64,000 nt of DNA, from contig CAYMCR010000001.1 in the NCBI GenBank assembly GCA_964389015.1, forward strand, positions 4,561 to 68,560, in the 5' to 3' direction. The stretch is from an uncultured Fibrobacteraceae bacterium (GTDB taxonomy: Bacteria > Krumholzibacteriota > Krumholzibacteriia > LZORAL124-64-63). A model generated the notes under the pieces. The model saw nothing but the letters and a program-made list of their open reading frames with translations. It did not search any database and was not told where the DNA came from. Both the position numbers and the translations under genes were made by a program. Of the stretch, positions 4,286-60,330 are shown piece by piece; the first letter of the stretch is position 1; each line of letters opens with the position of its first letter.

Positions 4286-5355
4286 GGGGAATCGGCCGCC
4301 TTGACCGGCAACGGGGCGAGATCATAACGGGCGCGCAGGTCGGACGCCTGTTCGCGCGCCTGGGACATGCCGGCGTACGAGCCGGCGCGCAGCTTGTAGA
4401 GCGCCAGACCGCGCTCGTCAGCCATTTCGCAGATCCGCAGTCCGGGGAGTCGCTCGCGCCAATCGTCCAGGAATTTCAAGGCGCGGGCCCGGTCGGCGAA
4501 CGCGGCGAACTGGAGCGTGTAGCGTCCTGGGGCAGGAGCCGCTTCCGGAATCTGTTCTTCGCTCCCGTCGACAGCGGGCGCGGGCATTGACGGTGTGTCG
4601 AGGCTCCGCTGCAGCTCCTCTTGTCGCTGCTCCTGCTCGACGACGAGCGCAGCGGGCAGGGAGTGCGGGAAGCGGTGTTCGAGCTCGCGGCGCAGGCGGG
4701 TCGCCTTCTGGGCATCCGTCTTGCTCGCCAACATCCAGTCCAGGAGCAGGATCTCGGCGCGACAGGGTGTGTCCTCGGTTCTCCCGGCCATCTCGAGGTA
4801 GCGCCGTGCCAAGGCGGGGTCCCCGTCGGTGAGGGCGAGACGGGCCAGCCGGTAACGGGCCCAGTCGTAATCCGGATCGCCTGGCGGTACGGCGGCCAGA
4901 GCGTCCCGACTGCCCGAGATGTCTCCCTGGGCGCGACAGGCCAAGCCACCCAGCAGGGTAGCGGAGGCCGCGGTTTCATCGTTACGCAGGGGAATCTCCT
5001 CGAGCAAGGCGATGGTGGTCTCGTAGTCGCCGGCGCCGAAGGCTTGCCAGGCGGCATCGGTGAGGAGCAAGGCTCGCGCGTCGTCTCCGAGATCGGGCGC
5101 GTCGAGGAGTTCGCGTCGCAGCCCGGCGGCTGCGGCGGGCGATTCCGCGAGGCGGTAGCGCCAATAGAGCGACTGCAGGTTGGTCCCGTCCGTGGCCGCG
5201 AGGGTGGTGGTGAGCTCCCGAGCGGCCGCGAAACGGCCCACGGCGAAGAGCGACCGCACGTCGTTCCAGTCGCCGGCTGGCGGGTCGGCGCCGTAAGCAC
5301 CGGGGGACATAGTCACGGCGATGAGCAGGACAACCCGGCCTACCGTGCGTCTCAT
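4282..5355 (-). CDS. Periplasmic SPOR-domain protein with TPR-like repeats (signal peptide; septal-peptidoglycan-binding SPOR at the C-terminus)
   Basis: I moved the start to the internal ATG at 5353-5355 (MRRTVGRVVLLIAVTMSPGAYGA looks like a signal peptide). The track ORF extends further 5' through an implausible Arg/Pro-rich stretch. C-terminal YTLQFAAFADRARALKFLDDW...YKLRAGSYAGMSQAREQASDL is a SPOR fold. The ATG overlaps the lapB stop (ATGA). Confidence 0.6.
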
Positions 5356-6524
5356 GCCGGTTCTCCGTGGGTCGCGGGGGGAGCGAAAGAGGCGAAGCTG
5401 CCGCAGCTGCGGCAATACCAGCGCACGCCCTCGGACTCCGCACTGCAGACGCGACAGGTCCAGCTCCGGGGACCCTCCGGTATGTGCAGGGCGGACCAGA
5501 CACGGGTGAAATCGCTGTCGGGCAGGTCGTTGACCAGGATGCGCAGATACCCCGCCGCCACGCCAGGTGTAAGTCGCGGGTCGCCGTGCTTGCCCTCGAG
5601 CATGCACACGGCCTGCTCGCGGTCGCCGATTTTCTCCTGCAGCAGGGCCAGGGCCAGCCACAGGGAGGGCGGGGCGTCCGCGTTCTGGCAGGCGGATTCG
5701 AGGATCGGGATGGAGCGCTCGAAGCGGCTGGCCGCCAGGAGAGCCTTTTGCAGGATCGGCAACAGCAGATCTGCGGCGGCGGGAGACATGAGCAAACCTT
5801 CGGTGGCCAGCTCGGCCGCGCGCTCGTGGTCCTGCTCGCCGAGGCGAGAGAAGGCGCGTACGTAAAGCGCCAGGTGACCGTGGCGGCCCGCTTTGTCCAC
5901 GGATCCGGACAAGCGGCGCGCCTCGCCGTGACGTCCGGCCTGTGCGGCGCTCACGGCACGGTCCAGCTGGAACAGTTCGTACTGGACACCGAACTCGGCG
6001 GCAGCCTCCGCCGGTGCCCGTTTCGCGCCCTCCCGGAGGGCGCGCGCGGCGCCATCCGCCAAGCCCTGGCCCAGGAACTGCCGGAAGCGTGCCCGCCAAA
6101 AACGGGGCGCGGCCAGATTGTGGCGCAGGAGGGAATCCAGCAGCTCACCGGCTTCGTCCCACAGCTCCAGAGCCAGGAGATCCTCGGTGAGCGCCAGGGT
6201 CACGGAGATTCGCTTGTGCGGCGGCAGCCCGGGGCGGGCGCTCAAACCGCGATGCAGCGCGGCGGCCCGGCGGGGATCACCGGTCAGGCGCAGCAGGTTG
6301 CCGAGCTGCAGATAGGGATCCACGGCGTGCGGTTCCTTGTCGATGGCGTCGCGCAGGGCCTCTAGCGCGCCGGTGGTGTCACCGGCCAGCCACAACTCGA
6401 GACCGCGCGTGTAGGCGTCCTCGGTCACGCCTTGGCCGACGCGCCGGCGCAGCAGCAGGAACAGGGCCGCGACCGCCAACAATACGGCCAGGGCGATGAA
6501 CCATGCGGAAGAGAGTACCGCCAT
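5352..6524 (-). CDS. lapB: Lipopolysaccharide assembly protein B (LapB/YciM): N-terminal TM helix, TPR repeats, C-terminal rubredoxin-like zinc ribbon
   Basis: N-terminal TM MAVLSSAWFIALAVLLAVAALFLLL. TPR-like helical repeats follow. The C-terminus has WTCRVCSAESEGVRWYCRSCGSF (CxxC...CxxC), typical of LapB. It sits directly downstream of lapA. Confidence 0.8.
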   Translation of the reverse strand: MAVLSSAWFIALAVLLAVAALFLLLRRRVGQGVTEDAYTRGLELWLAGDTTGALEALRDAIDKEPHAVDPYLQLGNLLRLTGDPRRAAALHRGLSARPGLPPHKRISVTLALTEDLLALELWDEAGELLDSLLRHNLAAPRFWRARFRQFLGQGLADGAARALREGAKRAPAEAAAEFGVQYELFQLDRAVSAAQAGRHGEARRLSGSVDKAGRHGHLALYVRAFSRLGEQDHERAAELATEGLLMSPAAADLLLPILQKALLAASRFERSIPILESACQNADAPPSLWLALALLQEKIGDREQAVCMLEGKHGDPRLTPGVAAGYLRILVNDLPDSDFTRVWSALHIPEGPRSWTCRVCSAESEGVRWYCRSCGSFASFAPPATHGEPA

Positions 6525-6527
6525 GAT

Positions 6528-6839
6528 CTAGTCCTCCGTGGCTTCGTCCAGTTCGCGAAGGGGCAGCGAACGCAGCTCGGTGATCTCGTTGTCGCGGTCC
6601 TTCAGATCGCGAGCCAGGGTGCGGAGCCGGTTGCGCAGCTTGATCTCGCGGATGCCGCCCACGATCAGGCTGACCAGGATGCCGGCGAGGAATCCACCCA
6701 GCATCACGTAGTAGAGGGGAATGTCCAGGTACTCCCACTTCAGCAAGCGCAGATCAACGGACTGGCCGCTGTTCTGGGTGAAGAACACGGCCATGGTGAG
6801 CAAGACGAGCAGGTAGATGATTCCCTTGAAGATCCACAC
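6528..6839 (-). CDS. lapA: Lipopolysaccharide assembly protein A (LapA/YciS, DUF1049) small inner-membrane protein
   Basis: 103 aa with two TM segments (IIYLLVLLTMAVFF; LYYVMLGGFLAGILVSLIVGGI) then a charged coiled tail. GTG start at 6839. Conserved lapA-lapB gene order. Confidence 0.65.
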   Translation of the reverse strand: MWIFKGIIYLLVLLTMAVFFTQNSGQSVDLRLLKWEYLDIPLYYVMLGGFLAGILVSLIVGGIREIKLRNRLRTLARDLKDRDNEITELRSLPLRELDEATED

Positions 6840-6869
6840 GGTTTCACCTCTCGGCTGGTTCGAGTCGAT

Positions 6870-8204
6870 TCAAGTCATTTCGGCGAGAAAGGTCGTCGCC
6901 TCGCAATCAGTGATGCGGACCTCGAGCACGTCGCCGACGGCGGCGTCGCAATCCTTCAGGAGCACCTTGCGATTGTTCGGCGTGCGCGCCTTTACCGCCC
7001 CTTCCGGACGGCGGGCCTCCCCCTCCACGGCCACTCTTCTGCGACGCCCGATCTCCTCCGTGGCGAGTTCCTGCCAGATCTCGTCCTGGAGGGCCATCAA
7101 CTCGGCCAGTCGCTCCTTCTTGACCAGGAGGTCGACATCGTCGTCCAGACGGACGGCGGGAGTCCCCGGTCGCGCCGAGTACTTGAAATTGAAGGTCTGA
7201 TCGTAGCGGACCTCCCGCACCAACTCAAGCGTCTGTCGGAAATCATCGTCGGTCTCCCCCGGGAAGCCAACGATGAAATCGCCCGAGAAGGTCACGTCCC
7301 GGACATGCCGGCGCGCCAACTCGACCAGGGCCAAGTAGCGATCGCGGGTGTAGAACCGCTTCATGCGCTTCAGGATGCGATCGCTGCCGCTTTGCGCCGG
7401 TATGTGCAGCCAGGGGCAGACCTTCTCGAGTTCGCCGATGGCGCGGAGCAACGGCTCGTCCATGTCGCAGGGATGACTGGTCAGGAAGCGGATGCGGGCC
7501 AGTCCGGTGACCTCGGCCACCTGGCGCAGCAGGCCGGCGAAGTCGAGGTCGGGTGCCCTGTAGGCCGTGACGTTCTGGCCGAGCAGGGTGACCTCCCGTC
7601 CCCCCATGGCGACGATATCGCGGATCTCTTCCAGAATGGCGGACGGAGACTTCTCGCGCTGGGGACCGCGCGTCGCTGGAACGATGCAATAGGTGCAGCG
7701 GTAGTCACAGCCCTTGTGGATGGTCACCAGGTGCGAGTTGTTGGTGGGATAGGCCTCCGGCGGCGCCACGTAATGCATCTCCGCGAGATGGCCCGTGGCG
7801 ACCGGTGGTTTGCGTTCGCGGCCCGTCAGGAGTCGCACGAGCAGTTCCGGCAACCGATCATACTGGTCGACACCCGCCACGAGGTCTACCCGGCCGGTAC
7901 CTTTGGCCAGGGCGTGGGCAAGTCGCTCGGCCATGCAACCGCAGACGCCGATGACATCGGCCCGGATCAAGCCGCGGCGACGCTGGCTGCGCAGTTCACC
8001 GATACGGCTGAAGATCTTGTGCTCGGCCAGTTCCCGGACCGAGCAGGTGTTCAGGAGGATGACGTCGGCCGTGACCGGGTCGTGAGCCAGGGTATAGCCG
8101 TTGCGCGTCAGGATACCGCCGATGGCGGACGAGTCGTAGGTGTTCATCTGACAGCCGTAGGTCTCGATGTAGACCCTGTGGCTCGCGGTTTCCCCTGACG
8201 ACAT
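6870..8204 (-). CDS. miaB: tRNA-2-methylthio-N6-dimethylallyladenosine synthase (radical-SAM methylthiotransferase MiaB)
   Basis: MTTase N-domain motif IETYGCQMN. Radical-SAM cysteine triad CDYRCTYC. C-terminal TRAM-like region. I placed the start at the ATG at 8202-8204 (MSSGETASHRVYIETYGC), which has a GGAGGAAGC RBS. Confidence 0.9.
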   Translation of the reverse strand: MSSGETASHRVYIETYGCQMNTYDSSAIGGILTRNGYTLAHDPVTADVILLNTCSVRELAEHKIFSRIGELRSQRRRGLIRADVIGVCGCMAERLAHALAKGTGRVDLVAGVDQYDRLPELLVRLLTGRERKPPVATGHLAEMHYVAPPEAYPTNNSHLVTIHKGCDYRCTYCIVPATRGPQREKSPSAILEEIRDIVAMGGREVTLLGQNVTAYRAPDLDFAGLLRQVAEVTGLARIRFLTSHPCDMDEPLLRAIGELEKVCPWLHIPAQSGSDRILKRMKRFYTRDRYLALVELARRHVRDVTFSGDFIVGFPGETDDDFRQTLELVREVRYDQTFNFKYSARPGTPAVRLDDDVDLLVKKERLAELMALQDEIWQELATEEIGRRRRVAVEGEARRPEGAVKARTPNNRKVLLKDCDAAVGDVLEVRITDCEATTFLAEMT

Positions 8205-8220
8205 GCTTCCTCCGTGGCGA

Positions 8221-9558
8221 TCAGATGCCGGGTGCCGGCGCCACCTCATCGGCGTAGAGTGTGTCGGCGCGGAAACCGGCAGGTTTCAGGATGACCATGG
8301 CGCCCGGCTCCCAGGTGTCGGGCACCGACACCACAGCGTAGTTACCGGTGGTGGCCTGCAGCCGGTCAGGCGCCGGTCGCTCGGTCTCCACCGTGGCCTC
8401 GTGCCAGTGACCGATCAGTCGCTGCTCGAATTCGTGGCGCTTGCGTCGGCTCAGGTCCCGCAGGATGCGCGAGCGCTCGGTGACTGTTTCCGTGTGGACG
8501 GGCCGCATTCCGGCCGCCGGCGTGCCCGGTCTGGGTGAGAAACGGAACACGTGCAGATATGATAGGGCCGACAGCTCGAGAAAGCTGCGCGTGGCGTCGA
8601 ATTCGGCGTCAGACTCGTCTGGGAAGCCCACGATCACGTCGGCACCTATACCAAAGTGGAGGCCCAAACCCGCTGCGGCCTCGATTGCCTGGCCGGCGCT
8701 GTCCACATCGTAGGGCCTGCGCATTCGACGTAATACATCATCAGAGCCACTTTGCAGTGAGATATGGAGATAGGGCCTCAGGTTCGTGTAGTTCTCGAAG
8801 AGTTCCAGCAAGGGTGGGCGCACCTCGTTGGGGTGTATGCTGCTCAGGCGGAAGCGCATGTCCGGGAACCTGCCCAGGACCTCCGCCAGCAGCGGGACGA
8901 GAGCCTTGCCCAGTCCCAGATCCCGGCCGTAGCTCCCGAGGTGCACGCCGGCCAGGACGATCTCCCCGAAACCGTTCTCGCGCAGCACCTCTATCTGGCG
9001 TGAGACGTCGGCGACGGGTCGGGATCGGTTCGGCCCGCGCGCCTGCCAGATCAGGCAATAGGTGCACCGCAGATCGCAACCGTCCTGGACCTTCACATAG
9101 GCGCGAGTGCGACCGTCGAAGTCGGTGATGTCGTGGGAGCGGAAGGCGGCGTGCCGTTCGAATGCCGAGACCTCGACCAGAGGCGAGTCTGCCGCCAGCA
9201 GTCGCGGCAGCCACTCGGCGATATCCTCGCGCTCGTTGAGGCCGAAAACACCGTCGAGTTCGGTTATGGCGGCGAGGGCGTCTTGCTGGGTCTGGGCGTA
9301 GCAGCCGGTCACGACGACCTTGGCGTCGGGACGGCGCCGCTTCACGGCGCGCGCGAGCTGACGGCACTTCTGATCGGCCTTGAGGGTCACCGTGCAGCTG
9401 TTAAGTACGTAGACGTCCGCGTCCGCGGTCCAGGGCACCGTCACGCAATGCAAGCCGTCGGGCAAGCGCGCTTTCATGACCTCGGTGTCGTATTGATTCA
9501 GGCGACAGCCGAGGGTCTGGAATGCTATACGCACCGTGCGTGTGGGCTCGTTAGTCAT
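8221..9558 (-). CDS. Second radical-SAM methylthiotransferase, MtaB-like (tRNA t6A37 methylthiotransferase) or RimO-like paralog
   Basis: FQTLGCRLNQYD (MTTase N-domain). CDLRCTYC radical-SAM motif. Same family as miaB but divergent. Sits directly upstream of miaB. Confidence 0.8.
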   Translation of the reverse strand: MTNEPTRTVRIAFQTLGCRLNQYDTEVMKARLPDGLHCVTVPWTADADVYVLNSCTVTLKADQKCRQLARAVKRRRPDAKVVVTGCYAQTQQDALAAITELDGVFGLNEREDIAEWLPRLLAADSPLVEVSAFERHAAFRSHDITDFDGRTRAYVKVQDGCDLRCTYCLIWQARGPNRSRPVADVSRQIEVLRENGFGEIVLAGVHLGSYGRDLGLGKALVPLLAEVLGRFPDMRFRLSSIHPNEVRPPLLELFENYTNLRPYLHISLQSGSDDVLRRMRRPYDVDSAGQAIEAAAGLGLHFGIGADVIVGFPDESDAEFDATRSFLELSALSYLHVFRFSPRPGTPAAGMRPVHTETVTERSRILRDLSRRKRHEFEQRLIGHWHEATVETERPAPDRLQATTGNYAVVSVPDTWEPGAMVILKPAGFRADTLYADEVAPAPGI

Positions 9559-9640: not shown

Positions 9641-11956
9641 CTAGGAGTCCTGTTTCTCGTCCTCGACGACCGCATTCTCCTCGGCCGTCTTTTCGTCGGA
9701 CGTTTCCGCCTCGGTCGACTCCTCGTCCGCCGCTTCGTCTGACGCCGCTTCCGGGGCCGGTTCTTCGACGGCAGCTTCTGCCGCGGCCGGCTCTTCGTCA
9801 GCAGCGGCTTCCGCGGCCGGCTCTTCGTCAGCAGCTTCTGCCGTGACCGGCTCCTCGTCGGACACCTTGTCATCAGTCGTCACTTCGTCAGCCGTGCTTT
9901 CCTCGGCCGGCTCCGCGACGGGTTGATCGGTCGGTGTAGCGGAGACTTCTGCAGTGGTCTCATCACCGTCGCTCGCCGCGTCGGTCGCTACATCCTCAGG
10001 AGTGTCCTCAGGAGCGTCCTTAGGAGTGTCCTCCGGAGCATAGTCGCTTCCGGAATCGGCAGGATAGTCGTCGTTGGCGCGGGCGGTGTCATCGCCTCCC
10101 GCTTCGGCCTCACGTTCGGCCGCCACGACAGCTTCGAGCAGAGGATGCTCGGAGACGAACGTATCCAATTCCTCGCGGGACTGATCCTTGAAGTACTCGG
10201 CCACGGACAACACGATGCGACGGTTCTCCGCGTCCATCTTGATCACGTGCAGGGGCAGGGACTCCTCCTCCTGGAAGTGATACTGGGGCTTCTGGATCTT
10301 GGGGATCGCCAGATGGCCGACCGGCACGAAGCCCTCCAGCGCGTCGGAGATCTCCACGACCATGCCGTGGTCCAGCATGCGGATGACCTGGCCTTCGACC
10401 TGTCGTCCCACGGGATAGTCCTCGGCGAGCGTCGGCCAGGGGTTCTCCTGGAGCTGCTTGATGCCGAGGCTGATGCGACGTTTGTCGGCGTCGATGTCCA
10501 GGATCTGGACCTGCACCGAATCGCCCTTGCGCACGATCTCCTTGGGATGGCGGACGCGCTTGGTCCACGACATGTCCGAGATATGCACCAGACCGTCGAT
10601 ACCCTCCTCCACCTCGACGAAGGCGCCGAAGTCCGTGAGGTTGCGCACACGACCCTCGATGATGGTGCCGACGGGGAAGCGGTCGTCGAGGGACAGCCAG
10701 GGATCCGACTCGGTCTGCTTGAGACCGAGCGAGATCTTCTCGTTGTCCTTGTCTATCTTCAGGACCATGACCTCGACGAGATCGCCGATGGACAGGATCT
10801 TGCTGGGATGCTTGATGTGACGCGTCCAGGACATCTCACTGATGTGGATGAGCCCCTCGATGCCCTCCTCCAGCTCCACGAAGGCGCCGTAGTTGGTGAT
10901 CGAGACGACCTTGCCCTGCACGATGGTCTTCTCCGGGTACTTCGCCTCGACGTTCTCCCAGGGGTAGGACTGAAGCTGCTTCAGGCCCAGGGAGATCCGT
11001 TCGCGGTCGCGGTCGAAGTCCAGGATCTTGACCTCGATCTCGTCGCCGATGTTGACGACCTCGCTCGGATGCTTCACGCGGCCCCAGGAGAGGTCCGTGA
11101 TGTGCAGCAAGCCGTCGATGCCGCCCAGGTCCACGAAGGCGCCGAAGTCGGTGATGTTCTTCACGACGCCGGTGCGCACCTGGTTCTTGTCCAGCTCCGC
11201 CATCAACGTCTTCTTCTTCTCCTCGCGCTCACGCTCGAGCACGATGCGGCGGCTGACCACCACGTTGCGGCGGCGCTTGTTCTTCTTGATGATCTGGCAC
11301 TCGATCTCCTGGCCGATCATCTGGTCCAGGTCGGGGACCTGGCGTAGCGCGACCTGCGAGCCGGGCAGGAAGGTGTCGACATCCCAGAGCTTGACGACCA
11401 GGCCGCCCTTGATGCGGCGATCGACGGTGCCGGTGACCACGTCGCCGGACTCGTGGGCGATCTTGATCCTGTTCCAGACCTTCAGGAAGTCGGCGCGTTC
11501 CTTGGACAGGACCACCAGGCCGTCCTGGTCTTCGAGATGCTCCAGGAAGACGTCGAACTCGTCGCCCTCCGTGATCTCCGTCGCGCCGAACTCGTCGAGG
11601 GAGATGATGCCCTCGCTCTTGAAGCCGATGTTCAGCAGGACCTCGTTCTCGCGGACCTCGACCACCGTTCCCTTGAGGATCTGACCCTCCTGGATCTCGT
11701 TGAGGGTTTCCTCGTACTGGTTCAGCAACGCCAGCATGGCGTCGTCGTCCAGCTCCTCGCCCTCGGTATAGTCGCGGTTGACTATCGCGGACTCGTCGAA
11801 GGTGGTGGTCAGCTTGGGCGCGGCAGGCACAACTGCGGCTAAGCCGCCGTCGCGATTCTCTTTCTGCGCGGCTTCGGCGTGGACTGGTCGGTTCTCGGGG
11901 ACCGAAGGAGTCTGCTCCTGCGGAGCTTCCTCCCCCGTGTTGGGGTTGGGATTCAT
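9641..11956 (-). CDS. rpsA: 30S ribosomal protein S1 with a ~50-aa N-terminal extension and a ~170-aa acidic repetitive C-terminal tail
   Basis: Six S1 domains (ILKGTVVEV; VVTGTVDRRIKGG; VRTGVVKNITDFGAFVDLGG; TIVQGKVVSITNYGAFVEL; GTIIEGRVRNLTDFGAFVEV; GRQVEGQVIRML). 771 aa, versus about 557 for E. coli S1. The tail is rich in D/E/A/P/T. AGGAGGAACC RBS upstream. Confidence 0.95.
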   Translation of the reverse strand: MNPNPNTGEEAPQEQTPSVPENRPVHAEAAQKENRDGGLAAVVPAAPKLTTTFDESAIVNRDYTEGEELDDDAMLALLNQYEETLNEIQEGQILKGTVVEVRENEVLLNIGFKSEGIISLDEFGATEITEGDEFDVFLEHLEDQDGLVVLSKERADFLKVWNRIKIAHESGDVVTGTVDRRIKGGLVVKLWDVDTFLPGSQVALRQVPDLDQMIGQEIECQIIKKNKRRRNVVVSRRIVLEREREEKKKTLMAELDKNQVRTGVVKNITDFGAFVDLGGIDGLLHITDLSWGRVKHPSEVVNIGDEIEVKILDFDRDRERISLGLKQLQSYPWENVEAKYPEKTIVQGKVVSITNYGAFVELEEGIEGLIHISEMSWTRHIKHPSKILSIGDLVEVMVLKIDKDNEKISLGLKQTESDPWLSLDDRFPVGTIIEGRVRNLTDFGAFVEVEEGIDGLVHISDMSWTKRVRHPKEIVRKGDSVQVQILDIDADKRRISLGIKQLQENPWPTLAEDYPVGRQVEGQVIRMLDHGMVVEISDALEGFVPVGHLAIPKIQKPQYHFQEEESLPLHVIKMDAENRRIVLSVAEYFKDQSREELDTFVSEHPLLEAVVAAEREAEAGGDDTARANDDYPADSGSDYAPEDTPKDAPEDTPEDVATDAASDGDETTAEVSATPTDQPVAEPAEESTADEVTTDDKVSDEEPVTAEAADEEPAAEAAADEEPAAAEAAVEEPAPEAASDEAADEESTEAETSDEKTAEENAVVEDEKQDS
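9751..9860. repeat. In-frame tandem repeat, ~30-bp unit x ~3.7, inside the rpsA tail; a second 15-bp x 3 repeat lies at 9986-10030
   Basis: Units ccgcggccggctcttcgtcagcagcggctt / ccgcggccggctcttcgtcagcagcttctg and flanking degenerate copies. They encode (E/A)EPAAEAAAD repeats. The 15-bp unit aggagtgtcctc(n) encodes EDTPKDAPEDTPED. Confidence 0.6.
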
Positions 11957-12072
11957 TTGTGGTTCCTCCTAAAAGACATATTTACCCGACTGGGCAGTCG
12001 GGCATCGGCAGAATATACACCAGTCTCCCTGTGTTTGCAAGTATTTAGGGGGTGGATCGAGAGGTCCCGCCA

Positions 12073-13575
12073 TCACTTCCGGGACCGCGGCGCGGATTTG
12101 CCGAAAACGCGCTTTTCCTTGCGTCTAACGGCCTTTTCCCGCCGGTGAGCGGCCTCATATTCCCAGTCCGAGATGGGGATGCGGGCACTGGAGCGGGCCA
12201 GCATCTCCCGGTAGATGTTCTCGAAGAGGCTGGCCACGGCGCGGTTGACATCCTTCTCGGTTTTGCGCGCCAGCAGGGCCGGCAGGGCGTACAGCCGCAC
12301 CGGCGGTGCGATCCACAGCTCCAGGGGCGACCGGGGCGAACCGCCGGGCTCAGGGGACATGGTGCCGCGGCATAAGATCGGCAAGGCGGGTGCCTTGGTT
12401 CTCTGCATGAGCATGCCCAGCCCGTTGCGTACCGGGCCCGGCTGGCCGAAGACGCGCCGCGTACCCTCGGGATAGAACAGGATGTTCGCGCCCTGGTCGA
12501 GGAAAGACGCCGCCATGTCGAAAGCCGTGCTGTCGTAGATAGACCGCTTGATGGGCACGGCGTCGAGGAAGCGGTACAGGAAGCGCGAGGGCCAGTACCG
12601 GAAGAGTTCCGCCTTGGCCACGGCGCGCAGGGGATAGACGTCCCGTACTCCCGCGCCCAGGAACGGCGGATCCCAATTGCTGATATGGTTGGGAGCCAGG
12701 ATGTGGCCCTGCACCCCGTCCACGAATTCGCGGCCGTAGGTACGCAAGCCGAAGAACTTGCCCAGCGCGCCCATGACGGTGTAGGCAATCCGGTAATTCC
12801 AGGTCATCGATCGCCGTGGCGGCTGCGCGTCTTTTGCAGGGGGTTGCTTGTCCGTGAGTATGCGCAGGACGGCCTCGGTGGTTACCTCCAGCTGCTCGTG
12901 GAGCACCATGTCACTGTTGTCGATCAGGATGGCATCCGGCGAAATGGTCAGCGGACTCTCTTCCCGCTGGCTGTCGCGGCGATCGCGCGCCGTCAATTCC
13001 TGTATAACCTCTTCGCGATCGATCGAGACGCCCCGTCGTTGATGCTGTCGCAGGCGTCGCTCGGCGCGCGCTTCGAGCGTCGCATCCAGATAGATCTTGG
13101 CCGACGCCAGGGGGAAGACGACCGAGCCGATGTCGCGCCCTTCCATCACGACGCCCCGCGCGCGGCCCAGCGTGCGCTGGCGCTCGACCATGCAACTTCT
13201 CACCTCGGCATGTGCGGAGACGGCGGAGACGAGGGATTCCACCGCGGGCGTGCGGATCGCCGCGGAGATGTCGCGACCGTTCCAGGTGACCTGCACTTCG
13301 CCGCGCGTGGTCTCCAGGTGCAGATCCGCTCCTGCGAGCAGCGCGGCGAGCCCGATCGCGTCGTCGACCGCAACGCCCTGCTCGGCGGCGGCCCAAGTCA
13401 GCGCCCGGTACATGGCGCCGCTGTCGACGTAGAGCAGATCGAGATAGTCGGCGAGCGAGCGCGCAGTCGTGGATTTACCCGACCCGGCCGGACCGTCGAT
13501 GGCAATAACCGTATCCGGCGGCACCAGGCGGTTCGACGCGACGTGAGCAGGCGGCCTGGACGGTCCGCCGCTCAA
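12073..13575 (-). CDS. cmk: Fusion protein: cytidylate (CMP) kinase N-terminal domain + 1-acyl-sn-glycerol-3-phosphate acyltransferase (PlsC/LPLAT) C-terminal domain
   Basis: N-terminus IAIDGPAGSGKSTTARSLA...YVDSGAMYRA is the Cmk P-loop and CMP-binding signature (residues ~20-225). After a hydrophobic segment (MTWNYRIAYTVMGALGKFF) come the LPLAT motifs NHISNWD (HX4D) and YPEGTR. The track start is a TTG overlapping the hisC stop. The true start may be a few codons downstream. Confidence 0.8.
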   Translation of the reverse strand: MSGGPSRPPAHVASNRLVPPDTVIAIDGPAGSGKSTTARSLADYLDLLYVDSGAMYRALTWAAAEQGVAVDDAIGLAALLAGADLHLETTRGEVQVTWNGRDISAAIRTPAVESLVSAVSAHAEVRSCMVERQRTLGRARGVVMEGRDIGSVVFPLASAKIYLDATLEARAERRLRQHQRRGVSIDREEVIQELTARDRRDSQREESPLTISPDAILIDNSDMVLHEQLEVTTEAVLRILTDKQPPAKDAQPPRRSMTWNYRIAYTVMGALGKFFGLRTYGREFVDGVQGHILAPNHISNWDPPFLGAGVRDVYPLRAVAKAELFRYWPSRFLYRFLDAVPIKRSIYDSTAFDMAASFLDQGANILFYPEGTRRVFGQPGPVRNGLGMLMQRTKAPALPILCRGTMSPEPGGSPRSPLELWIAPPVRLYALPALLARKTEKDVNRAVASLFENIYREMLARSSARIPISDWEYEAAHRREKAVRRKEKRVFGKSAPRSRK

Positions 13576-14672
13576 GCCAGTATCTCCCGCATGGCTGCAA
13601 TGCAGCGCTGATTCTCTGCCGGTAGTCCGACACTGATGCGAATGGCTCCGTCGCCCAGTCCGAAGGCGCTCATGGGTCGCACGATAACCCCCCGGGTCAG
13701 AAGCTCGCGCGTGAGTTCATTGGCGTTGCCGGGACAGCGCACGAGGATGAAGTTGGTCTGGGAGGGTGTGATCTCCAGCCCCAGGGCTGTCAGTTCCCGC
13801 GAGAGATCCTCCAGCCACTCGCGGTTGCGTGCAGCGCGAGCCCCGGTCTCCTGCTTCTCCTGCAGGACCGCCAACGCGGCCGCCTGCGAGAGCGAGTTGA
13901 CGTTGAAAGGTTCACGCGTCTTATGCAGCTCGGCGATGAGATCGCGATGGGCAACCGCGTAGCCGACCCTGAGTCCCGCCAACGAGTGGATCTTGGAGAA
14001 CGTGCGCGCGATCACCAGATTGGGATGCGCGTCCAGCAGCGGCAATGTCTGGGGGTAGTCCGCGGCGGCCACGTATTCGTAGTAGGCCTCGTCCACCAGG
14101 ACGATCACGTGCTCGGGCACGTCGCGCAGGAAGGCGTCGAATTCCGCGGCCGTGTTGTAGGTGCCGGTGGGGTTGTTGGGATTGCAGACGATCACCAGCT
14201 TGGTGGCGTCGTCCACGGCCGCCGCCATCGCGGGCAGGTCGTGGCGATCCTCCGCATCCAGGGGCACGGCACGGCCGCATTCGAAATGCACGCCACAGGT
14301 CAACGGGTAGACGATGAAACTGGGATGGCCGAACACCACGTTCTCCCCCGGCGAGACGAGCGCCCGGATGAACATGTCGATGACCTCGTTCGAGCCGTTC
14401 CCGAAGATGAGGTTTTCGGGAGCGACGCCCAGGTCGCCGGCGACGCCGCGCGTCAATTCGTAGCAAGACGCGTCGGGATAGCGGTTCAGGTCGAGGGCAG
14501 CACGCTGCACGGCTTCGATCACGGACGGCAACGGCCCTTCCGGGTTCTCGTTGCTGGCCAGTTTCACGACGCTGTCCAGACCCAGTTCGCGTTGCACTTC
14601 ACTGATGGGCTTGCCCGGAGTGTAAGGATGAGTCGCGAGTATCCCCGGCCTGATGAGACTTTTGAAATCCAT
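13572..14672 (-). CDS. hisC: Histidinol-phosphate aminotransferase
   Basis: Start moved to ATG 14670-14672 (MDFKSLIRPGILATHPYTPGKP), which has an AGGAAGG RBS. Class-II aminotransferase motifs are present (NPNNPTG; TFSKIHSLAGLRVGY with the PLP lysine). About 366 aa, typical for HisC. Confidence 0.85.
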   Translation of the reverse strand: MDFKSLIRPGILATHPYTPGKPISEVQRELGLDSVVKLASNENPEGPLPSVIEAVQRAALDLNRYPDASCYELTRGVAGDLGVAPENLIFGNGSNEVIDMFIRALVSPGENVVFGHPSFIVYPLTCGVHFECGRAVPLDAEDRHDLPAMAAAVDDATKLVIVCNPNNPTGTYNTAAEFDAFLRDVPEHVIVLVDEAYYEYVAAADYPQTLPLLDAHPNLVIARTFSKIHSLAGLRVGYAVAHRDLIAELHKTREPFNVNSLSQAAALAVLQEKQETGARAARNREWLEDLSRELTALGLEITPSQTNFILVRCPGNANELTRELLTRGVIVRPMSAFGLGDGAIRISVGLPAENQRCIAAMREILA

Positions 14673-14703
14673 GACGCCTTCCTTGCTGTTCGATGGCCCC
14701 TGC

Positions 14704-15456
14704 TCAGTCCTGTAACCCGGCGCAACGCGCGATGGTTGCCGCTTCACCCGCCTCCAGTTCACGGAATTCTCCCACCTGTAGATCGCCCAGGTCGATTTCG
14801 CCGACGGTTGTACGATGCAGCGTCGCGACTCTGGCGCCCACGGCCCGGAACATACGCCGCACCTGGCGATTGCGACCCTCGCGCAGGGACATGCGCCAAC
14901 GACGTCCGTCGCGCCCCAGGAGCGACAATCTTGCCGGTAGACAGGGTCGCCCGTCCAGGGAGATTTCACCGTCGCGAAGCGGAGACAGCGCGGCCTCCCG
15001 GAGCGGCGCGGTCAGCACGACTTCGTAGGTCTTCCAGACCTCGCTGCGAGGACGGCAGAGCGCCTGGTGCAGGTCCCCGTCGTCAGTCCAAATGAGCAAC
15101 CCGCTGGTGTCCGCGTCAAGGCGCCCGACGGGCACCGCGCCGGGCGGCAGGTCGTAGCGATCGGCATAGATGTCGAGGCACGGTGTGCGCCCCTGCGGGC
15201 GCAGGGAGGAGATCACGCCGACGGGCTTGTGGAAGGCGAAGATCCGCCACCGCTCGGGCCAGGACACGCGTTGGTCGTCGACCGTGACCTCGTCGCGGAC
15301 CGGGTCGATGCGCCTGCCCAACTCGTCAGTCACTTTGCCATTTACGCCGACGCGTCCCGCGCGGATCAACGTCTCGACGGCGCGTCGGGAGCCGAGACCG
15401 GCACGCGCCAAGAAGCGGTTGAGACGAGGTAGGGCGGGCTCAGACCGCCGATTCAT
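14704..15456 (-). CDS. rluB: rRNA pseudouridine synthase, RsuA/RluB family (S4 domain + catalytic domain)
   Basis: S4 RNA-binding N-terminus LNRFLARAGLGSRRAVETLIRAGRVGVNGK. Catalytic aspartate motif VGRLDADTSGLLIWTDDG. Confidence 0.8.
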   Translation of the reverse strand: MNRRSEPALPRLNRFLARAGLGSRRAVETLIRAGRVGVNGKVTDELGRRIDPVRDEVTVDDQRVSWPERWRIFAFHKPVGVISSLRPQGRTPCLDIYADRYDLPPGAVPVGRLDADTSGLLIWTDDGDLHQALCRPRSEVWKTYEVVLTAPLREAALSPLRDGEISLDGRPCLPARLSLLGRDGRRWRMSLREGRNRQVRRMFRAVGARVATLHRTTVGEIDLGDLQVGEFRELEAGEAATIARCAGLQD

Positions 15457-18109: not shown

Positions 18110-19015
18110 TCAGCGACGACGGGCACGCGGATGGGCATTGCGATAAGCCTCGGCCAGGAAGGACCGGTCCACGTGGGTGTATATCTCCGTGGTGGAAATG
18201 GCCGTGTGTCCCAGCAACTCCTGCACTACGCGCAGGTCGGCGCCTCCCTCGAGCAGGTGCGTGGCGTAGGTATGACGCAGCGTGTGCGGCGTCACCTCGG
18301 CGGCCACGTCCGCGGCGCGGGACGCCTTCTTGACGAGAGACCAGACCGAGACGCGGGAAAGACGGCCGCCGCGCCGGTTCACGAAAAGTGCCGGACAGCG
18401 GTGTTTGCCCAACAACAGCGACCGGCCCTCGGCGAGATAGTCCCGCACGGCACGGAGCGCCGGCGCGCCCACGGGCACGATGCGCTCCTTGGCGCCCTTG
18501 CCGCGCACCAGCAGCGAGGAGCCGCGTTGGTCGAGGTCCGGAGGATCCAGGCCGCACAGTTCGCTCACGCGCAGACCACATCCGTAGAGCACTTCCAGGA
18601 TCGCCCGGTCGCGTGCGCCAGCCGGCCGCGCGGAATCTGGCACGGCGAGCAGACGATCGATCTGCCCCGCGGACAGCACCACCGGGAGCTTGCGTCCGAC
18701 CCGAGGCGAGAGCAGGGTGAGGGTCGGGTCCTGTTGGGCCAGCCCCTCCACCGTGAGAAAGCGATGGAAGGAACGCAGTGTGGAAATGAGCCTGGCTCGC
18801 GAGCGTGGCCCCAGGCGGTCGGCGCTGGCGAGCAGATAGGCCCGCAATTCCTGCGGTCCCGCGGTCGCCGGATCCGACAGACCCTGCGCCTCCGCCCAGC
18901 CGCGCCAGCCCTGGAGGTCGCGGGCGTAGGCCTCCAGGCTGTTGGCGGCCAGGCCCTGTTCCGCGGCGGCGTGCGACAGATAGGCGCCGATGGCCGTATC
19001 CCAGCGCGCGCTCAT
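18110..19015 (-). CDS. xerD: Tyrosine recombinase XerD-like
   Basis: Phage-integrase/Xer catalytic residues present: R (ARDRAILEVLYGCGLRVSEL), HTLRHTYATHLLEGGADLRVVQELLGH, and Y (TEIYTH). 301 aa. Confidence 0.8.
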   Translation of the reverse strand: MSARWDTAIGAYLSHAAAEQGLAANSLEAYARDLQGWRGWAEAQGLSDPATAGPQELRAYLLASADRLGPRSRARLISTLRSFHRFLTVEGLAQQDPTLTLLSPRVGRKLPVVLSAGQIDRLLAVPDSARPAGARDRAILEVLYGCGLRVSELCGLDPPDLDQRGSSLLVRGKGAKERIVPVGAPALRAVRDYLAEGRSLLLGKHRCPALFVNRRGGRLSRVSVWSLVKKASRAADVAAEVTPHTLRHTYATHLLEGGADLRVVQELLGHTAISTTEIYTHVDRSFLAEAYRNAHPRARRR

Positions 19016-20874
19016 CGGTGCCGGTCCTGCTCGGCGGCGAAGAAGGCGATGATGCGCTCCACATCGCCGCCGTGGATACCCCTGACCTTGCCGAGCTCAT
19101 CGGCGCCGGCGGCGCGGATCGCGTCCAGCGAATCGAAATGGTGCAGGAGCGTTAGTTTCTTGACCCGGCCGATACCGGGGATGAGGTCCAGAACCGAATC
19201 CTGCACGCTGCGGGAACGCAGCAGACGGTGGTAGGTGATGGCGAAGCGATGCGCCTCGTCGCGAACCCGCTGCAGCAGTTGCAGGGCGGGACTGGAGTGC
19301 GGCAGGCGGACCGGCGGCAGACCCCGTTCCCGGTGGATGACCTCTTCCCGCTTCGCCAGTCCCACCAGTTCGACTTCGTGCAGGCCGAGCGCGGTCAACG
19401 ACTCGCGCGCGGCCGAGAGCTGCCCGACGCCGCCGTCGACCATGACCAGGTCCGCCGGCGGCGAAGCCTTGTCCAGTAATCGGCGATAATAACGTGTCAG
19501 GACCTCTCGCATGGAGGCGAAGTCGTCGCTGCCCTGGACCGTGCGGATGCGAAAGCGCCGGTAACGCGACTTGAGCGGGCGCCCGTTCTTGAAGAAAACG
19601 AGGGAAGCCACCGTTTCCCGACCCTGCAGGGTGGAAATGTCGAAACACTCGATGGTTTCCGGCACCTTGCGCAGGTCGAGGGCGTCCTGCAGGGCCAGGG
19701 CGCGGCCTGGCGCGACGCGACGGACCCTTGTCTGATCCCGGAGCCGGCGTTCGTTCAGCTTGTAGGCCGCATTGGCCAGTGCCATGTCCACGGACTCCTT
19801 GCGCGGCCCGCGACGCGGCTTCACGATCACCACCGGTCGCCCGCGCAGCTCGCTCAGGCGCTCGCACCATTGCTCCTTGTCGGGCAAGTCGTGCGAGACC
19901 AGCAGGATGGGCGGCAGATCGCCGGCGCGCGGGTAGTATTCCCGGCACAGCTGAGACAGGAAGGCGGGGGTATCGCTTTCGAGCCGGTCTTCGAGCAGGA
20001 AGTGATGGCTCGTCATGATCTTCCCCCCGCGGATTCGCAACACCACGCCGCACCCGGTGGCCCCGTCGCGGACGACTCCGCAGGCGTCCAGGTCCCCGGT
20101 CAGTCCGTAGACGCGACCCACGCCGTCGAGGGCGGTTTCCAGCAGGGCGAGGCGATCCCGGACCTTGGCCGCGTCCTCGTAGTGTCGCCCTGCGGACAGG
20201 GTGGACATCTCGGCGCGCAGTTCGTCGAGCAGGCCCTTCTCCCGGCCCGCGAGAAAGCGGACCAGCGCGCGGACCCTGCGGTCGTAGACGGCCTGCGTGT
20301 CGTAGTCGACGCAGGGAGCGCTGCAGCGCCCGATCTGCCAGTCCAGGCAGGGGCGCGGGACGGTCTGTTCGGGCAGGTCGAGGTGGCAGGTTCGTACCTG
20401 GAAGACGCGCAGGGCGTGCTTGAGCGTCTCGCGCATGGCCTTGACATTGGTGTAGGGGCCGAAGTAGCGGGCGCCGTCGTCGGCGATCCTCCGCACTACC
20501 TCCACGCGGGGCATGGGTTCCTGCAAGGTGATGCGCAGGTAGGGATAGCGCTTGTCGTCCTTGAGCCTGATGTTGTAGCGGGGACGATATTCCTTGATCA
20601 ACTGGTCCTCGAGAACCAGCGCCTCCGCCTCGTTGGCCGTCGTGATGTAGTCCACGTCGGCGATGCGCTTGACGAGTTGTTCGGTCTTGGGGTCGTGATC
20701 TCCGGCGCGCTGGAAATAGGAGGCGACACGCAGGTGCAGACGAGCAGCCTTACCCACGTATATGACCTTGCCGTGCTTGTCCTTGTGCAGGTAGACACCC
20801 GGTGCGTCCGGGAGCAAATGGAGCTTGCGGGCCAGGTCGGAGCCGCCGCTTTTTTGCCGGGGGTGACTTGACAT
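19012..20874 (-). CDS. uvrC: Excinuclease ABC subunit C
   Basis: N-terminal GIY-YIG motif (PGVYLHKDKHGKVIYVGKAARL). Central UvrC domain. C-terminal RNaseH-like and HhH region. 620 aa. Confidence 0.95.
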   Translation of the reverse strand: MSSHPRQKSGGSDLARKLHLLPDAPGVYLHKDKHGKVIYVGKAARLHLRVASYFQRAGDHDPKTEQLVKRIADVDYITTANEAEALVLEDQLIKEYRPRYNIRLKDDKRYPYLRITLQEPMPRVEVVRRIADDGARYFGPYTNVKAMRETLKHALRVFQVRTCHLDLPEQTVPRPCLDWQIGRCSAPCVDYDTQAVYDRRVRALVRFLAGREKGLLDELRAEMSTLSAGRHYEDAAKVRDRLALLETALDGVGRVYGLTGDLDACGVVRDGATGCGVVLRIRGGKIMTSHHFLLEDRLESDTPAFLSQLCREYYPRAGDLPPILLVSHDLPDKEQWCERLSELRGRPVVIVKPRRGPRKESVDMALANAAYKLNERRLRDQTRVRRVAPGRALALQDALDLRKVPETIECFDISTLQGRETVASLVFFKNGRPLKSRYRRFRIRTVQGSDDFASMREVLTRYYRRLLDKASPPADLVMVDGGVGQLSAARESLTALGLHEVELVGLAKREEVIHRERGLPPVRLPHSSPALQLLQRVRDEAHRFAITYHRLLRSRSVQDSVLDLIPGIGRVKKLTLLHHFDSLDAIRAAGADELGKVRGIHGGDVERIIAFFAAEQDRHR

Positions 20875-27851: not shown

Positions 27852-28808
27852 TCACTCCGAGCGGGGATGGGCCTTGCGGTATTCCTCCCGCAGCCTGGCC
27901 CGGGAGAGATGCGTGTAGATCTGGGTGGTGGCCAGGTGCTCGTGCCCGAGCAATTCCTGCACGACCCTGATGCCCGCGCCGCCGTCGAGCAGATGCGTCG
28001 CGAAGCTGTGCCGCAGCGCATGGGGTGAGATGCCCCGCAGCCCCGCCAGCTGACCGGCGTAATGGGCGACCCGCTGTTGCACCGTGCGGGGGCTGATGCG
28101 ACGCCCGCGCCGACCCTCGAAGACCGGCCGCCGGGCCTCTGCGGCCGCCAGGTTGCCGTCCAGCAGGGACAGGTAGACGTCGGGGTCGAGCAGGCCCTCG
28201 AGATGTCCGCGCAGGTGGCGCGCCGTGATGCCGAGCAGCGGCAGGATGCGCTCCTTGTTGCCCTTGCCCAGCACGCGTACCCGCTCGGATGGAAAGTCGA
28301 GGCTCGCGAGATCGAGTCCCACGACCTCCGACAGGCGCAGGCCGAGCCCGTAAAGGACCTCCAGGATGGCGCGGTCGCGCCGTCCGCGGGCTTGCGAGGC
28401 GTCGGGCAGTTCGAGCAGGGCTTCGATCATCTCCTCCATCAGGTCGCGCGGGAGTCTACGCTCGCGACCAGCGGAGGTTCCCCGGGCGAGGCACTCGGGC
28501 ACGACCGCCAGGACGCCGGCCAGTTGGAGATAGCGAGCGAAGGCCCGGATCGTGGCGATCTGCCGGGCGATGGTGGCGTGAGCGCGACCGCGGCGACGCA
28601 GCAGGGCCAGGTGATCCCGCACGGCGGTCCGTTCGTTGAAGAGGCGGCGCCAAGCCTGGTCCCCGACCTTGGCGGGCAGGTGGCCGAGGTTGCGGCTCGT
28701 CTCAAGGAACTGGGACAGATCACGGGTATACGCCTCGACGGTGCGTGCGCTGGCGCCCTTCTCGATCTCGATGTGACGCGTAAATGCGGTGACGTGATCC
28801 ATGCGCAT
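27852..28808 (-). CDS. xerC: Tyrosine recombinase XerC-like
   Basis: Catalytic signature residues: RDRAILEVLYGLGLRLSE, HALRHSFATHLLDGGAGIRVVQELLGH, TQIYTH. 318 aa. Confidence 0.8.
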   Translation of the reverse strand: MRMDHVTAFTRHIEIEKGASARTVEAYTRDLSQFLETSRNLGHLPAKVGDQAWRRLFNERTAVRDHLALLRRRGRAHATIARQIATIRAFARYLQLAGVLAVVPECLARGTSAGRERRLPRDLMEEMIEALLELPDASQARGRRDRAILEVLYGLGLRLSEVVGLDLASLDFPSERVRVLGKGNKERILPLLGITARHLRGHLEGLLDPDVYLSLLDGNLAAAEARRPVFEGRRGRRISPRTVQQRVAHYAGQLAGLRGISPHALRHSFATHLLDGGAGIRVVQELLGHEHLATTQIYTHLSRARLREEYRKAHPRSE

Positions 28809-28826
28809 CCTCCCGGCGAGAATCTA

Positions 28827-36353: not shown

Positions 36354-37034
36354 CTAGACGAACCAGGTGTTGCAGAACTGGATGACGGCGGCCGTCGCCA
36401 GGGGCATCGTCAGATTGTCCCAACGTCCCGGCGTCCAGCGCTCCATGGTGGCGGATGCGACGCCGCCGGCGACGGTCAGCAGCAGGGAAGCGTCGCTTAC
36501 CAGCGAAATGACGAGCATCGAGACCAGGAAACAGGCCGACGTGCCGACCCAGGTCTTGTTGCCGCGCTTGCTCACCACGGGTGCCCGGGTGCCGTCACCC
36601 TTCTCCAGGCCGAGCTGTTGCCGGCGGAAGGAGACTGCCTGTCCCACGATGGCCGCCGCCGAATCGCCCCAAGATAAGCACAGGATGCCCGCGGCCGCCG
36701 GTACGGCGGGGAACAGGAAAGACGTGATCGTGGCCCCGATCATCATCACCGAGGCACCGGAGAGCGTATAGCGCTCGTCGCGCCGGAAGATCAGCGGGAA
36801 GGTCCGGTATAACCAGAGCGCCCAGCGTTTGGTGGCCAGACGGGCCAGGTCGGTGGAGATGACGAAAACCGTCGCCGCCGCCAGGCCGGCCGTGCACAGC
36901 GGCTCGTCGATCAGCAGCACCCAGACGGCGAAGATCGTCGAGGATATATGAATGGCCTTGCGGCCCCATTCGACGCTCTCGCGCCAGGTACGGGGCTGCG
37001 GTCTGGTTGAGCTGCCGGTCTTCTGAGGTGTCAT
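36354..37034 (-). CDS. Polytopic membrane protein of the CTP-dependent transferase/kinase superfamily (CdsA / dolichol-phytol kinase-like)
   Basis: About 226 aa with 5-6 TM segments. Motifs WGDSAAAIVGQ and KRGNKTWVGT resemble the GDxxAxxxG / K..KTWxG signature of the CTP_transf_1-like family. Start set at the MTPQKT ATG, +/-3 nt. A 12-nt gap separates it from the secA start. Confidence 0.5.
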   Translation of the reverse strand: MTPQKTGSSTRPQPRTWRESVEWGRKAIHISSTIFAVWVLLIDEPLCTAGLAAATVFVISTDLARLATKRWALWLYRTFPLIFRRDERYTLSGASVMMIGATITSFLFPAVPAAAGILCLSWGDSAAAIVGQAVSFRRQQLGLEKGDGTRAPVVSKRGNKTWVGTSACFLVSMLVISLVSDASLLLTVAGGVASATMERWTPGRWDNLTMPLATAAVIQFCNTWFV

Positions 37035-37053
37035 AGTCCCTTTTCTCTGCCAC

Positions 37054-42050: not shown

Positions 42051-42062
42051 GAAGCGGGTGGC

Positions 42063-53048: not shown

Positions 53049-53073
53049 GTAGGATCCTCGCATTCTCAGGGGT

Positions 53074-53100
53074 GAGAAAAGCCGCTCCGGTACGGACGGC
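53074..53100 (-). terminator. Possible Rho-independent terminator downstream of the sigma54 activator gene
   Basis: Imperfect GC hairpin GCCGUCCGUACCGGAGCGGC, followed on the minus strand by UUUUCUC. 66 nt after the activator stop. Confidence 0.4.
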
Positions 53101-53165
53101 TCATCACACATGATACGCCAATGATGCGGCCGGAGCCAAGCCCCCAGTACAGGGCCAAGTGCATC

Positions 53166-55292: not shown

Positions 55293-55345
55293 AGCCGATA
55301 CCTCGCACTGCTGTTAATCGGGAAGTGCCATGTCGGCGCGCGCCC

Positions 55346-55675: not shown

Positions 55676-55725
55676 GTCACACCTCCCGCACTGCTCTGCG
55701 TCCGCGCCCGGCTGTTAGACAACCG

Positions 55726-56670: not shown

Positions 56671-56710
56671 GCATAGCCTCGTTGTTTCGCAGTCGGGTTT
56701 CCCCGCTGGT

Positions 56711-56726
56711 TGCAGTTTCTGTGCCC
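56711..56726 (-). promoter_or_regulatory. Candidate sigma54 (-24/-12) promoter upstream of fliA
   Basis: Minus strand gGGCACaGAAAcTGCA, compared with the consensus TGGCACG-N4-TTGCA. GG-N10-GC spacing is correct. About 40 nt upstream of the fliA ATG. Confidence 0.4.
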
Positions 56727-56743
56727 GCTCGGGTCAACAGCGA

Positions 56744-57064: not shown

Positions 57065-57083
57065 GCCTCAATCCTCCGCGCCC

Positions 57084-60324: not shown

Positions 60325-60330
60325 CTCCTA

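Follow-up and report, generated by a model that had tools for sequence, protein, structure and literature searches.

The 64,000-nucleotide window analysed here, from contig CAYMCR010000001.1 of an uncultured bacterium, contains on its minus strand a single open reading frame (ORF), cmk::plsC (12073..13575), in which a cytidylate kinase (Cmk) is joined in frame to a PlsC-type acyltransferase. We consider it probable that this ORF encodes a genuine bifunctional protein, fixed in its lineage, that arose through the in-frame fusion of neighbours in a widely conserved cmk-plsC-rpsA operon. An earlier note made from the sequence alone had described a single 500-aa in-frame Cmk-PlsC ORF, and that description holds: the ORF is stop-free, both Pfam domains are found in it, and the catalytic motifs are intact. 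The motifs quoted in that note (AIDGPAGSGKST at aa 25-36, YVDSGAMYRA at aa 49-58, NHISNWD at aa 296-302, and YPEGTR at aa 368-373) sit where it placed them, and the cmk-rpsA synteny it pointed out is present as well, with the gene for a 771-aa ribosomal protein S1 (rpsA, 9641..11956, minus strand) following immediately downstream.

Read from a TTG codon at 13575 to the stop codon at 12073-12075, the product is 500 aa long, and this TTG shares bases with the TGA stop that ends the aminotransferase gene upstream (TTGA). An alternative GTG start at codon 18 (13522..13524, minus strand) gives 483 aa; independent annotations of a 100% identical, 483 aa protein (P0001) use it, and gene calls on three contigs start at this codon (window position 13524). 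The first 18 residues are not conserved, at only 22% in the alignment of 22 homologues. Both starts are possible, and our other conclusions are independent of the choice. The region around 12900-13000, where the earlier note had advised looking for an interruption, contains neither a stop nor a frameshift in the window sequence.

From its N-terminus, and all on the minus strand, the protein consists of a cytidylate kinase domain (12874..13506, aa 24-234, with the P-loop at 13468-13503), a proline-rich interdomain linker (12808..12870, aa 236-256), a helix preceding the acyltransferase core (12742..12807, aa 257-278, MTWNYRIAYTVMGALGKFFGLR), the core itself (12370..12738, aa 280-402), and the C-terminal helices of the acyltransferase half (12076..12264, aa 438-500), which carry a clade-specific conserved basic tail. 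In the core, the HX4D motif (HISNWD, 12670-12687) and YPEGTR (12457-12474) were verified codon by codon. The acyltransferase half opens exactly at Met257 (MTWNYR...; ATG at 12805-12807, minus strand), a residue that is also methionine in close relatives and leucine, isoleucine, or valine in distant ones in the 22-sequence alignment. This methionine may have been left over from the start codon of the ancestral plsC, or it may serve as an internal start from which a free 244-aa PlsC is also made; no clear Shine-Dalgarno sequence was seen upstream of it, which is not decisive.

The identity of the N-terminal half is supported by both profile and structural comparisons. It matches Pfam PF02224 (Cytidylate_kin) over aa 24-234 with an E-value of 1.3e-64 and 218.3 bits against a cut-off of 26, scores 224.5 bits against the NCBIfam cmk equivalog TIGR00017, above that model's cut-off of 135.55, and matches a solved Cmk at E = 1.8e-43. 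An AlphaFold2 model, built on the 22-sequence alignment, includes the complete Cmk fold with its nucleoside monophosphate-binding insert, and a Foldseek comparison to E. coli Cmk (PDB entry 2CMK) gave a template modelling score (TM-score) of 0.93 and a root-mean-square deviation of 1.6 Å over 217 columns. The P-loop GxxGxGK[ST], the CMP-binding DSGAxYR, GRD, and RDxxDxxR are all present in the window protein, and the corresponding residues (P-loop G28-S35, D51/G53/Y56/R57, G146-R147-D148, and R197/D198/D201/R204) are invariant in the 22 fused homologues. The N-terminal half is thus predicted to be a complete type-1 bacterial kinase of cytidine monophosphate (CMP) and its deoxy form dCMP.

The C-terminal half is a predicted PlsC-type acyltransferase, of the lysophospholipid acyltransferase (LPLAT) or acylglycerolphosphate acyltransferase (AGPAT) type, with all four catalytic motifs. 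Pfam PF01553 (Acyltransferase) is matched over aa 280-402 with an E-value of 1.9e-17 and 63.8 bits against a gathering threshold of 23. Motif I (HX4D), the motif II arginine (R344), motif III (EGTR), and the motif IV proline (P399) align with those of Thermotoga maritima PlsC (PDB entry 5KYM), and H297/D302, K321/E323, R344, E370/G371/R373, and P399 are invariant in the 22 fused homologues. No second PF01553-like ORF was found in the 64-kb window. The model TIGR00530 (AGP_acyltrn) was matched with only 54.8 bits against a curated cut-off of 102.95, so that a specificity for lysophosphatidate is tentative, while membership in the PF01553 family is secure.

That low score leaves room for the protein being some other LPLAT enzyme, for instance one that re-acylates lysophospholipids or O-acylates an aminolipid in the manner of OlsA, or for its Cmk half acting mainly as a nucleotide-sensing regulator. 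The resemblance to T. maritima PlsC amounts to only about 20% identity with a TM-score of 0.58 (E = 6.7e-6), the clade-specific C-terminal extension would suit a divergent activity, and the confident placement of the two domains relative to each other in the structural model (described below) is compatible with tight coupling between them. Nevertheless, 5KYM was the single sequence match in the PDB when a profile of the acyltransferase half was searched (E = 2e-15), among acyltransferases it was the best match to the C-terminal half in Foldseek, ahead of PatA, and the invariance of all Cmk catalytic residues argues against a degenerate sensor. On balance we regard these alternatives as unlikely.

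The basic C-terminal extension itself (RS..P.T.WE.E....RKE.RVF, with a predicted helix at aa 470-491) is conserved in the fused Krumholzibacteria-like clade (loci L001-L021) and absent from unfused and Eisenbacteria-type PlsC. Matches to the hidden Markov model (HMM) of the PlsC half stop around position 150-200 of 229 in those proteins and run through positions 226-229 only in the fused clade. The extension may contact the membrane or the kinase domain.

With both halves assigned, the possibility that an assembly or sequencing error had merged two adjacent genes, a doubt raised in the earlier note, had to be weighed. Such errors do occur in the cmk-plsC neighbourhood of metagenome-assembled genomes (MAGs): indel damage was seen at other loci, L054 having its rpsA in three pieces and L029, L070, and L077 a split cmk. 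The fusion, however, recurs far too often for this explanation. A 100% identical protein (P0001) is encoded on eight contigs from at least three Joint Genome Institute (JGI) metagenome samples, on each of them as a single gene flanked by the aminotransferase gene and rpsA. The best 120 homologue clusters (49-100% identity) all carry PF02224 and PF01553 together and are about 475-518 aa long where complete. More than 120 clusters, and 22 independent genomes at species level, repeat the frame and architecture, with a conserved linker length. Recurrence across samples, genomes, and clusters rules out an assembly or frameshift artefact, to which we give practically no credence. The earlier note's caution that the fusion might already be common and annotated in its lineage is borne out, the fusion being universal in the clade and frequent elsewhere, although the source names of the homologue clusters read only "(d)CMP kinase" or "cytidylate kinase."

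The count of 22 genomes comes from a locus scan of one genome per GTDB species that drew its motifs solely from the acyltransferase half. It yielded 80 loci, and every stop-to-stop ORF in them was searched with HMMs of both halves, rpsA, and hisC. Both halves were found in one frame in 22 loci (L001-L021 and L052), nearly all with hisC upstream and rpsA downstream, and in every one of them 57-61 residues separate the end of the Cmk match from the catalytic histidine. One further locus (L054, Sabulitectum) is also fused and was left uncounted, its rpsA being in three pieces in the assembly. Together with the window, the fused Krumholzibacteriia-like loci form one clade in the Cmk tree and in the PlsC tree alike. 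Their source labels are Candidatus Krumholzibacteriia or are loose or incorrect ("Fibrobacteraceae," "Gemmatimonas sp.," "bacterium"). More generally, for L001, L002, L003, L007, L010, L011, L026, L072, and L076 the MAG labels (Fibrobacteraceae, Gemmatimonas sp., Limnocylindria, Hyphomicrobiales) conflict with the gene trees, in which cmk, plsC, rpsA, and hisC of these genomes fall with Krumholzibacteria-like or Eisenbacteria-like sequences. This points to loose labelling or mis-binning.

Searching a 141-aa query spanning the junction against 1.84 billion representatives at 50% identity returned 102 matches, 79 of which have both domains in one polypeptide, mostly of 410-500 aa. Many of the fused representatives outside the clade are singletons, and some may be errors. 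One junction match, a metagenomic representative (P0185, 454 aa), lacks an acyltransferase domain and has a tandem pair of complete Cmk domains (aa 2-216 and 224-442). In the cluster of P0146, the contigs are of almost equal length (49,178 and 49,142 bp), with either differing gene calls or an indel setting the two assemblies apart.

The conservation pattern was assessed with an alignment of the 22 fused proteins, reaching down to 48% identity. Mean pairwise identity is 63% in the Cmk half, 55% in the acyltransferase core, and 25% in the linker, which is nevertheless held to a length of 17-22 aa. Purifying selection acts on both halves, and the sequence of the linker is free to vary. The AlphaFold2 model has a mean predicted local distance difference test (pLDDT) score of 85.6, falling to 76-82 in the linker, and its predicted TM-score (pTM) of 0.86 for a two-domain chain suggests that the domains may adopt a defined mutual orientation. 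No solved chain covering both halves was found in the Foldseek search.

The locus scan also provides evidence for where the fusion came from. Among 59 loci with more distant members of this PlsC subfamily (30-40% identity), 50 have a separate cmk ORF immediately upstream of plsC, often abutting or overlapping it, and many have rpsA downstream. As the loci were chosen on PlsC motifs alone, the adjacency of cmk is not an artefact of selection. Unfused cmk-plsC-rpsA arrangements were found in Fermentibacteraceae (Fermentibacteria), most Eisenbacteria, Clostridia, Negativicutes (Selenomonadales/Sporomusaceae), Brevibacillus, WOR-3, and others. Given that the two genes are separate and adjacent in these lineages, we conclude that the fusion is a merger of operon neighbours.

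A second fused group, with a shorter linker and a shorter PlsC, is made up of an Eisenbacteria subclade (L071, L072, L073, L076, and L077) that neighbours unfused Eisenbacteria in the Cmk tree as well as in the PlsC tree, the two trees recovering the same major groups. A neighbour-joining tree of fused and unfused representatives is star-like and poorly resolved past the main clades, with fused sequences interleaved with those of unfused Clostridia and WOR-3; for this reason we limit the claim to at least two independent fusions. At least one further fusion took place, in the Eisenbacteria subclade.

The earlier note had placed a transmembrane helix between the two domains and proposed that a membrane-tethered Cmk would channel nucleotide recycling into phospholipid synthesis, a model taken here to mean direct delivery of nucleotides to the synthesis of cytidine diphosphate (CDP)-diacylglycerol. 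A helix does exist there: the structural model has one helix (aa 259-274) that follows the proline-rich linker and precedes the first strand of the core, and unfused relatives often have a strongly hydrophobic N-terminal helix at this point, reaching up to 2.4 on the Kyte-Doolittle scale. In the window protein, however, no 19-residue segment of the whole sequence reaches the classical Kyte-Doolittle threshold of 1.6, and the interdomain helix WNYRIAYTVMGALGKFFGLRTYG is not among the ten most hydrophobic such segments. Its Eisenberg mean hydrophobicity is 0.35, with a hydrophobic moment of 0.30, and it has arginine and lysine within the segment. Topology also disfavours a single span, since both domains use cytoplasmic substrates and would face opposite sides of the membrane, with the ATP- and CMP-using Cmk opposite a PlsC active site supplied with acyl groups by acyl carrier protein or coenzyme A. 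A transmembrane helix is thus rejected on hydropathy and topology, and, with the PlsC and Cmk reactions not consecutive, we hold the tethered channelling model to be very improbable.

Loci were compared by taking, from the 60 residues that precede HX4D, the 19-mer of highest hydropathy. The 49 separate plsC genes gave a median of 1.44, compared with 0.60 for the 22 fusions of Krumholzibacteria-like loci and 0.85 for the 5 of Eisenbacteria, and the 1.6 threshold was reached in none of the 27 fused loci versus 19 of the 49 separate ones (Mann-Whitney p = 5e-9, a value that overstates the support because there are only two or three independent fusion events; the Eisenbacteria alone give p = 0.07). 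One published statement (PMC10146087, citing Robertson et al. 2017) describes PlsC as monotopic and anchored by an N-terminal hydrophobic/aromatic two-helix motif. Compared to that motif, the window protein has a single helix (259-274) before the core, aromatic and weakly hydrophobic. The alignment to T. maritima PlsC begins at its residue 65, which corresponds to position 22 of the window's PlsC half, and therefore only one of the anchor helices has a counterpart in the window protein. From its composition and hydropathy, we read this helix as a probable aromatic/amphipathic interfacial anchor, softened since becoming internal.

Most likely, then, the protein would be a bifunctional enzyme at the membrane surface, in which CMP recycling and phosphatidate synthesis are co-expressed 1:1 and co-localised. 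It would occupy the cytoplasmic face as a monotopic or peripheral enzyme, with the aromatic/amphipathic helix ahead of the core keeping it there, perhaps together with the basic C-terminal helices. After fusion, the helix ahead of the core would have lost hydrophobicity relative to the N-terminal anchor found in unfused relatives; it no longer has a free N-terminus, and crossing the bilayer would misplace the kinase. The pay-off would be obligatory co-expression at a 1:1 ratio and the siting of the conversion of CMP and ATP to CDP at the membrane, where enzymes that consume CDP-diacylglycerol free CMP and where CdsA needs cytidine triphosphate (CTP).

This proposal differs from the scheme in the earlier note, in which CdsA releases CMP and CTP is regenerated via CMP kinase; that loop departs from the textbook pathway. 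PlsC makes phosphatidate, which CdsA converts with CTP to CDP-diacylglycerol, freeing pyrophosphate. The CDP-alcohol phosphotransferases PgsA and PssA free CMP in the following step, at one CMP per phospholipid made via CDP-diacylglycerol. Cmk then converts CMP to CDP, and nucleoside-diphosphate kinase restores CTP. PlsC and Cmk are therefore at least three enzymes apart, and the channelling which that note envisaged for a tethered Cmk can mean co-localisation at most. As the two reactions are not consecutive, a tunnel between the active sites, or any direct substrate channelling, is unlikely.

Several observations weigh against this explanation. Alongside the low TIGR00530 score and the small number of independent fusion events already described, cdsA, pgsA, pssA, and ndk were not found in the Pfam scan of the window, so that the genomic context adds no link to lipids beyond plsC itself. 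Furthermore, Cmk fusions to the functionally unrelated PanC, AroA, and Der have curated NCBIfam models, meaning that a selective pay-off is not needed to explain the present fusion.

The fusion could accordingly be neutral, the cmk stop having been lost between overlapping, translationally coupled genes, with the two activities remaining independent and the tethering having no physiological meaning. The separate ORFs commonly abut or overlap in relatives, so a single indel would be enough, and the curated fusions with PanC, AroA, and Der have no evident metabolic logic with Cmk. The scatter of fused forms, including many singleton clusters, among unfused Clostridia and WOR-3 and the unconstrained sequence of the linker also fit this explanation. 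Against it, every member of a deep clade, down to 49% identity, has kept the fusion, and the linker is kept at its narrow range of lengths. The pTM value points to domains with a defined arrangement, the anchor helix shows a systematic change, and cmk and plsC are adjacent across distant phyla, the usual sign of co-regulation. We regard a neutral fusion as possible while leaning against it.

A stronger version of this idea is that the kinase is rigidly docked on the acyltransferase, such that its occupancy by CMP, CDP, or ATP tunes phosphatidate synthesis, or that the membrane-bound kinase forms a local CMP-to-CDP recycling station for PgsA, PssA, and CdsA. We put this forward as a speculation that is rather improbable. 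If it were true, the cmk-plsC neighbourhood in Firmicutes, Fibrobacterota-Chlorobiota-Bacteroidota (FCB) lineages, and WOR-3 would represent an unrecognised general partnership joining pyrimidine-nucleotide recycling to membrane lipid synthesis, with the natural fusions serving as "Rosetta stone" evidence. More modestly, if the fusion does more than co-express its halves, it would be natural evidence that CMP recycling is tied to phospholipid assembly at the membrane, and a ready-made construct for testing that link.

Both domains are already known, as is the tendency of Cmk to fuse to its neighbours; the Cmk-PlsC combination is undescribed and only modestly surprising. NCBIfam has no curated model or name for it, and full-text literature searches found neither a Cmk-PlsC fusion nor a cmk-plsC operon. 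For hundreds of public sequences, however, precomputed Pfam annotations do display the architecture. In Krumholzibacteriota-like and some Eisenbacteria genomes, the likely housekeeping PlsC is hidden in entries named only "(d)CMP kinase," and metabolic reconstructions of these uncultured lineages may wrongly call phosphatidate synthesis missing. The protein also offers an example of a membrane-anchor helix losing hydrophobicity once it is internal to a fusion protein.

The surroundings of cmk::plsC lie largely on the same strand. Immediately upstream is a hisC-like class I/II aminotransferase gene (13572..14969, minus strand), whose position is kept in nearly all fused relatives. The spacer between cmk::plsC and rpsA (11957-12072, minus strand) is AT-rich in a 66% GC genome and contains a sigma-70-like promoter match (TTGCAA-17-TATATT, 12040->12012, minus strand) and a 9-bp hairpin (12004->11983, minus strand), each identified by a consensus match only. 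These may be the promoter and leader structure of rpsA. An Rfam scan of the window gave no matches. The encoded S1 protein has a long acidic, repetitive Ala/Glu/Pro-rich tail (…ADEEPAAEAAADEEPAAAEAAVEEPAPEAASDEAADEE…) past its S1 domains, making up the C-terminal ~150 of its 771 aa (9641-10100), and a strong terminator-like hairpin follows the gene (9609->9581). Directly downstream of rpsA are two adjacent radical-SAM methylthiotransferase genes (6873-8285 and 8221-9558, minus strand; UPF0004 and Radical_SAM, one TRAM; MiaB/RimO/MtaB-like), followed by genes for a LapA-domain protein (113 aa) and then a TPR protein (391 aa) (5355-6869, minus strand) that resemble the LapA/LapB lipopolysaccharide-assembly pair.

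Further away, a flagellar export cluster (55729-63430, minus strand) encodes FliP, FliQ, FliR, FlhB, FlhA, an FlhF-like SRP54-type GTPase, and a FliA-like sigma-70-family factor, which by gene content implies that this uncultured lineage is probably motile. Two genes for XerC/D-type tyrosine recombinases lie at 18113-19096 and 27855-28823. The other genes of the window are housekeeping (mutS, scpAB, trpS, xerC/D-like, uvrC, dapAB, topA, secA, and purine genes), and the Pfam scan of the remaining window yielded no further lipid or nucleotide-recycling genes. Sizeable ORFs with a coding-like GC content at third codon positions (GC3) and no Pfam match at E <= 1e-5 are found at 36357-37115, 39234-42062, 51969-53165, and 54804-55714, and one of them is 943 aa long. 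The coding-strand bias is extreme, with about 44 of 49 GC3-supported ORFs on the minus strand.

Compared to known systems, the N-terminal 235 aa share their fold and about 37% identity with bacterial type-1 Cmk (E. coli 2CMK/1KDO and Yersinia 4E22), and both have the P-loop, DSGAxYR, GRD, and RDxxDxxR motifs and lie directly upstream of rpsA. The solved and curated Cmk proteins are stand-alone enzymes of about 210-250 aa, whereas the window protein runs without a stop into a 265-aa acyltransferase half. That half shares HX4D, AKxEL, the motif II arginine, FPEGTR, and motif IV with T. maritima PlsC, with which its alpha/beta core aligns. The T. maritima enzyme has about 64 residues, a two-helix membrane anchor, ahead of the aligned core, in contrast to the one weakly hydrophobic helix here, and the window protein adds a conserved basic C-terminal tail. 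The curated bifunctional proteins PanC/Cmk (PRK13477), AroA/Cmk (PRK11860), and Cmk/Der (PRK09518) follow a like pattern of in-frame Cmk fusion, with PanC, AroA, and Der presumably being chromosomal neighbours of cmk as well. In each of these the partner differs and only the Cmk segment of the window protein aligns, with scores of 228, 179, and 165 bits falling far below the respective cut-offs of 524, 943, and 953. The unfused cmk-plsC-rpsA clusters have in common with the window the gene order, the PlsC subfamily signature (NH[IV]SxWDPP ... PEG[TM]R), and the single N-terminal helix, and differ in having two separate ORFs, a more hydrophobic PlsC N-terminal helix, and a shorter PlsC of about 200 aa.

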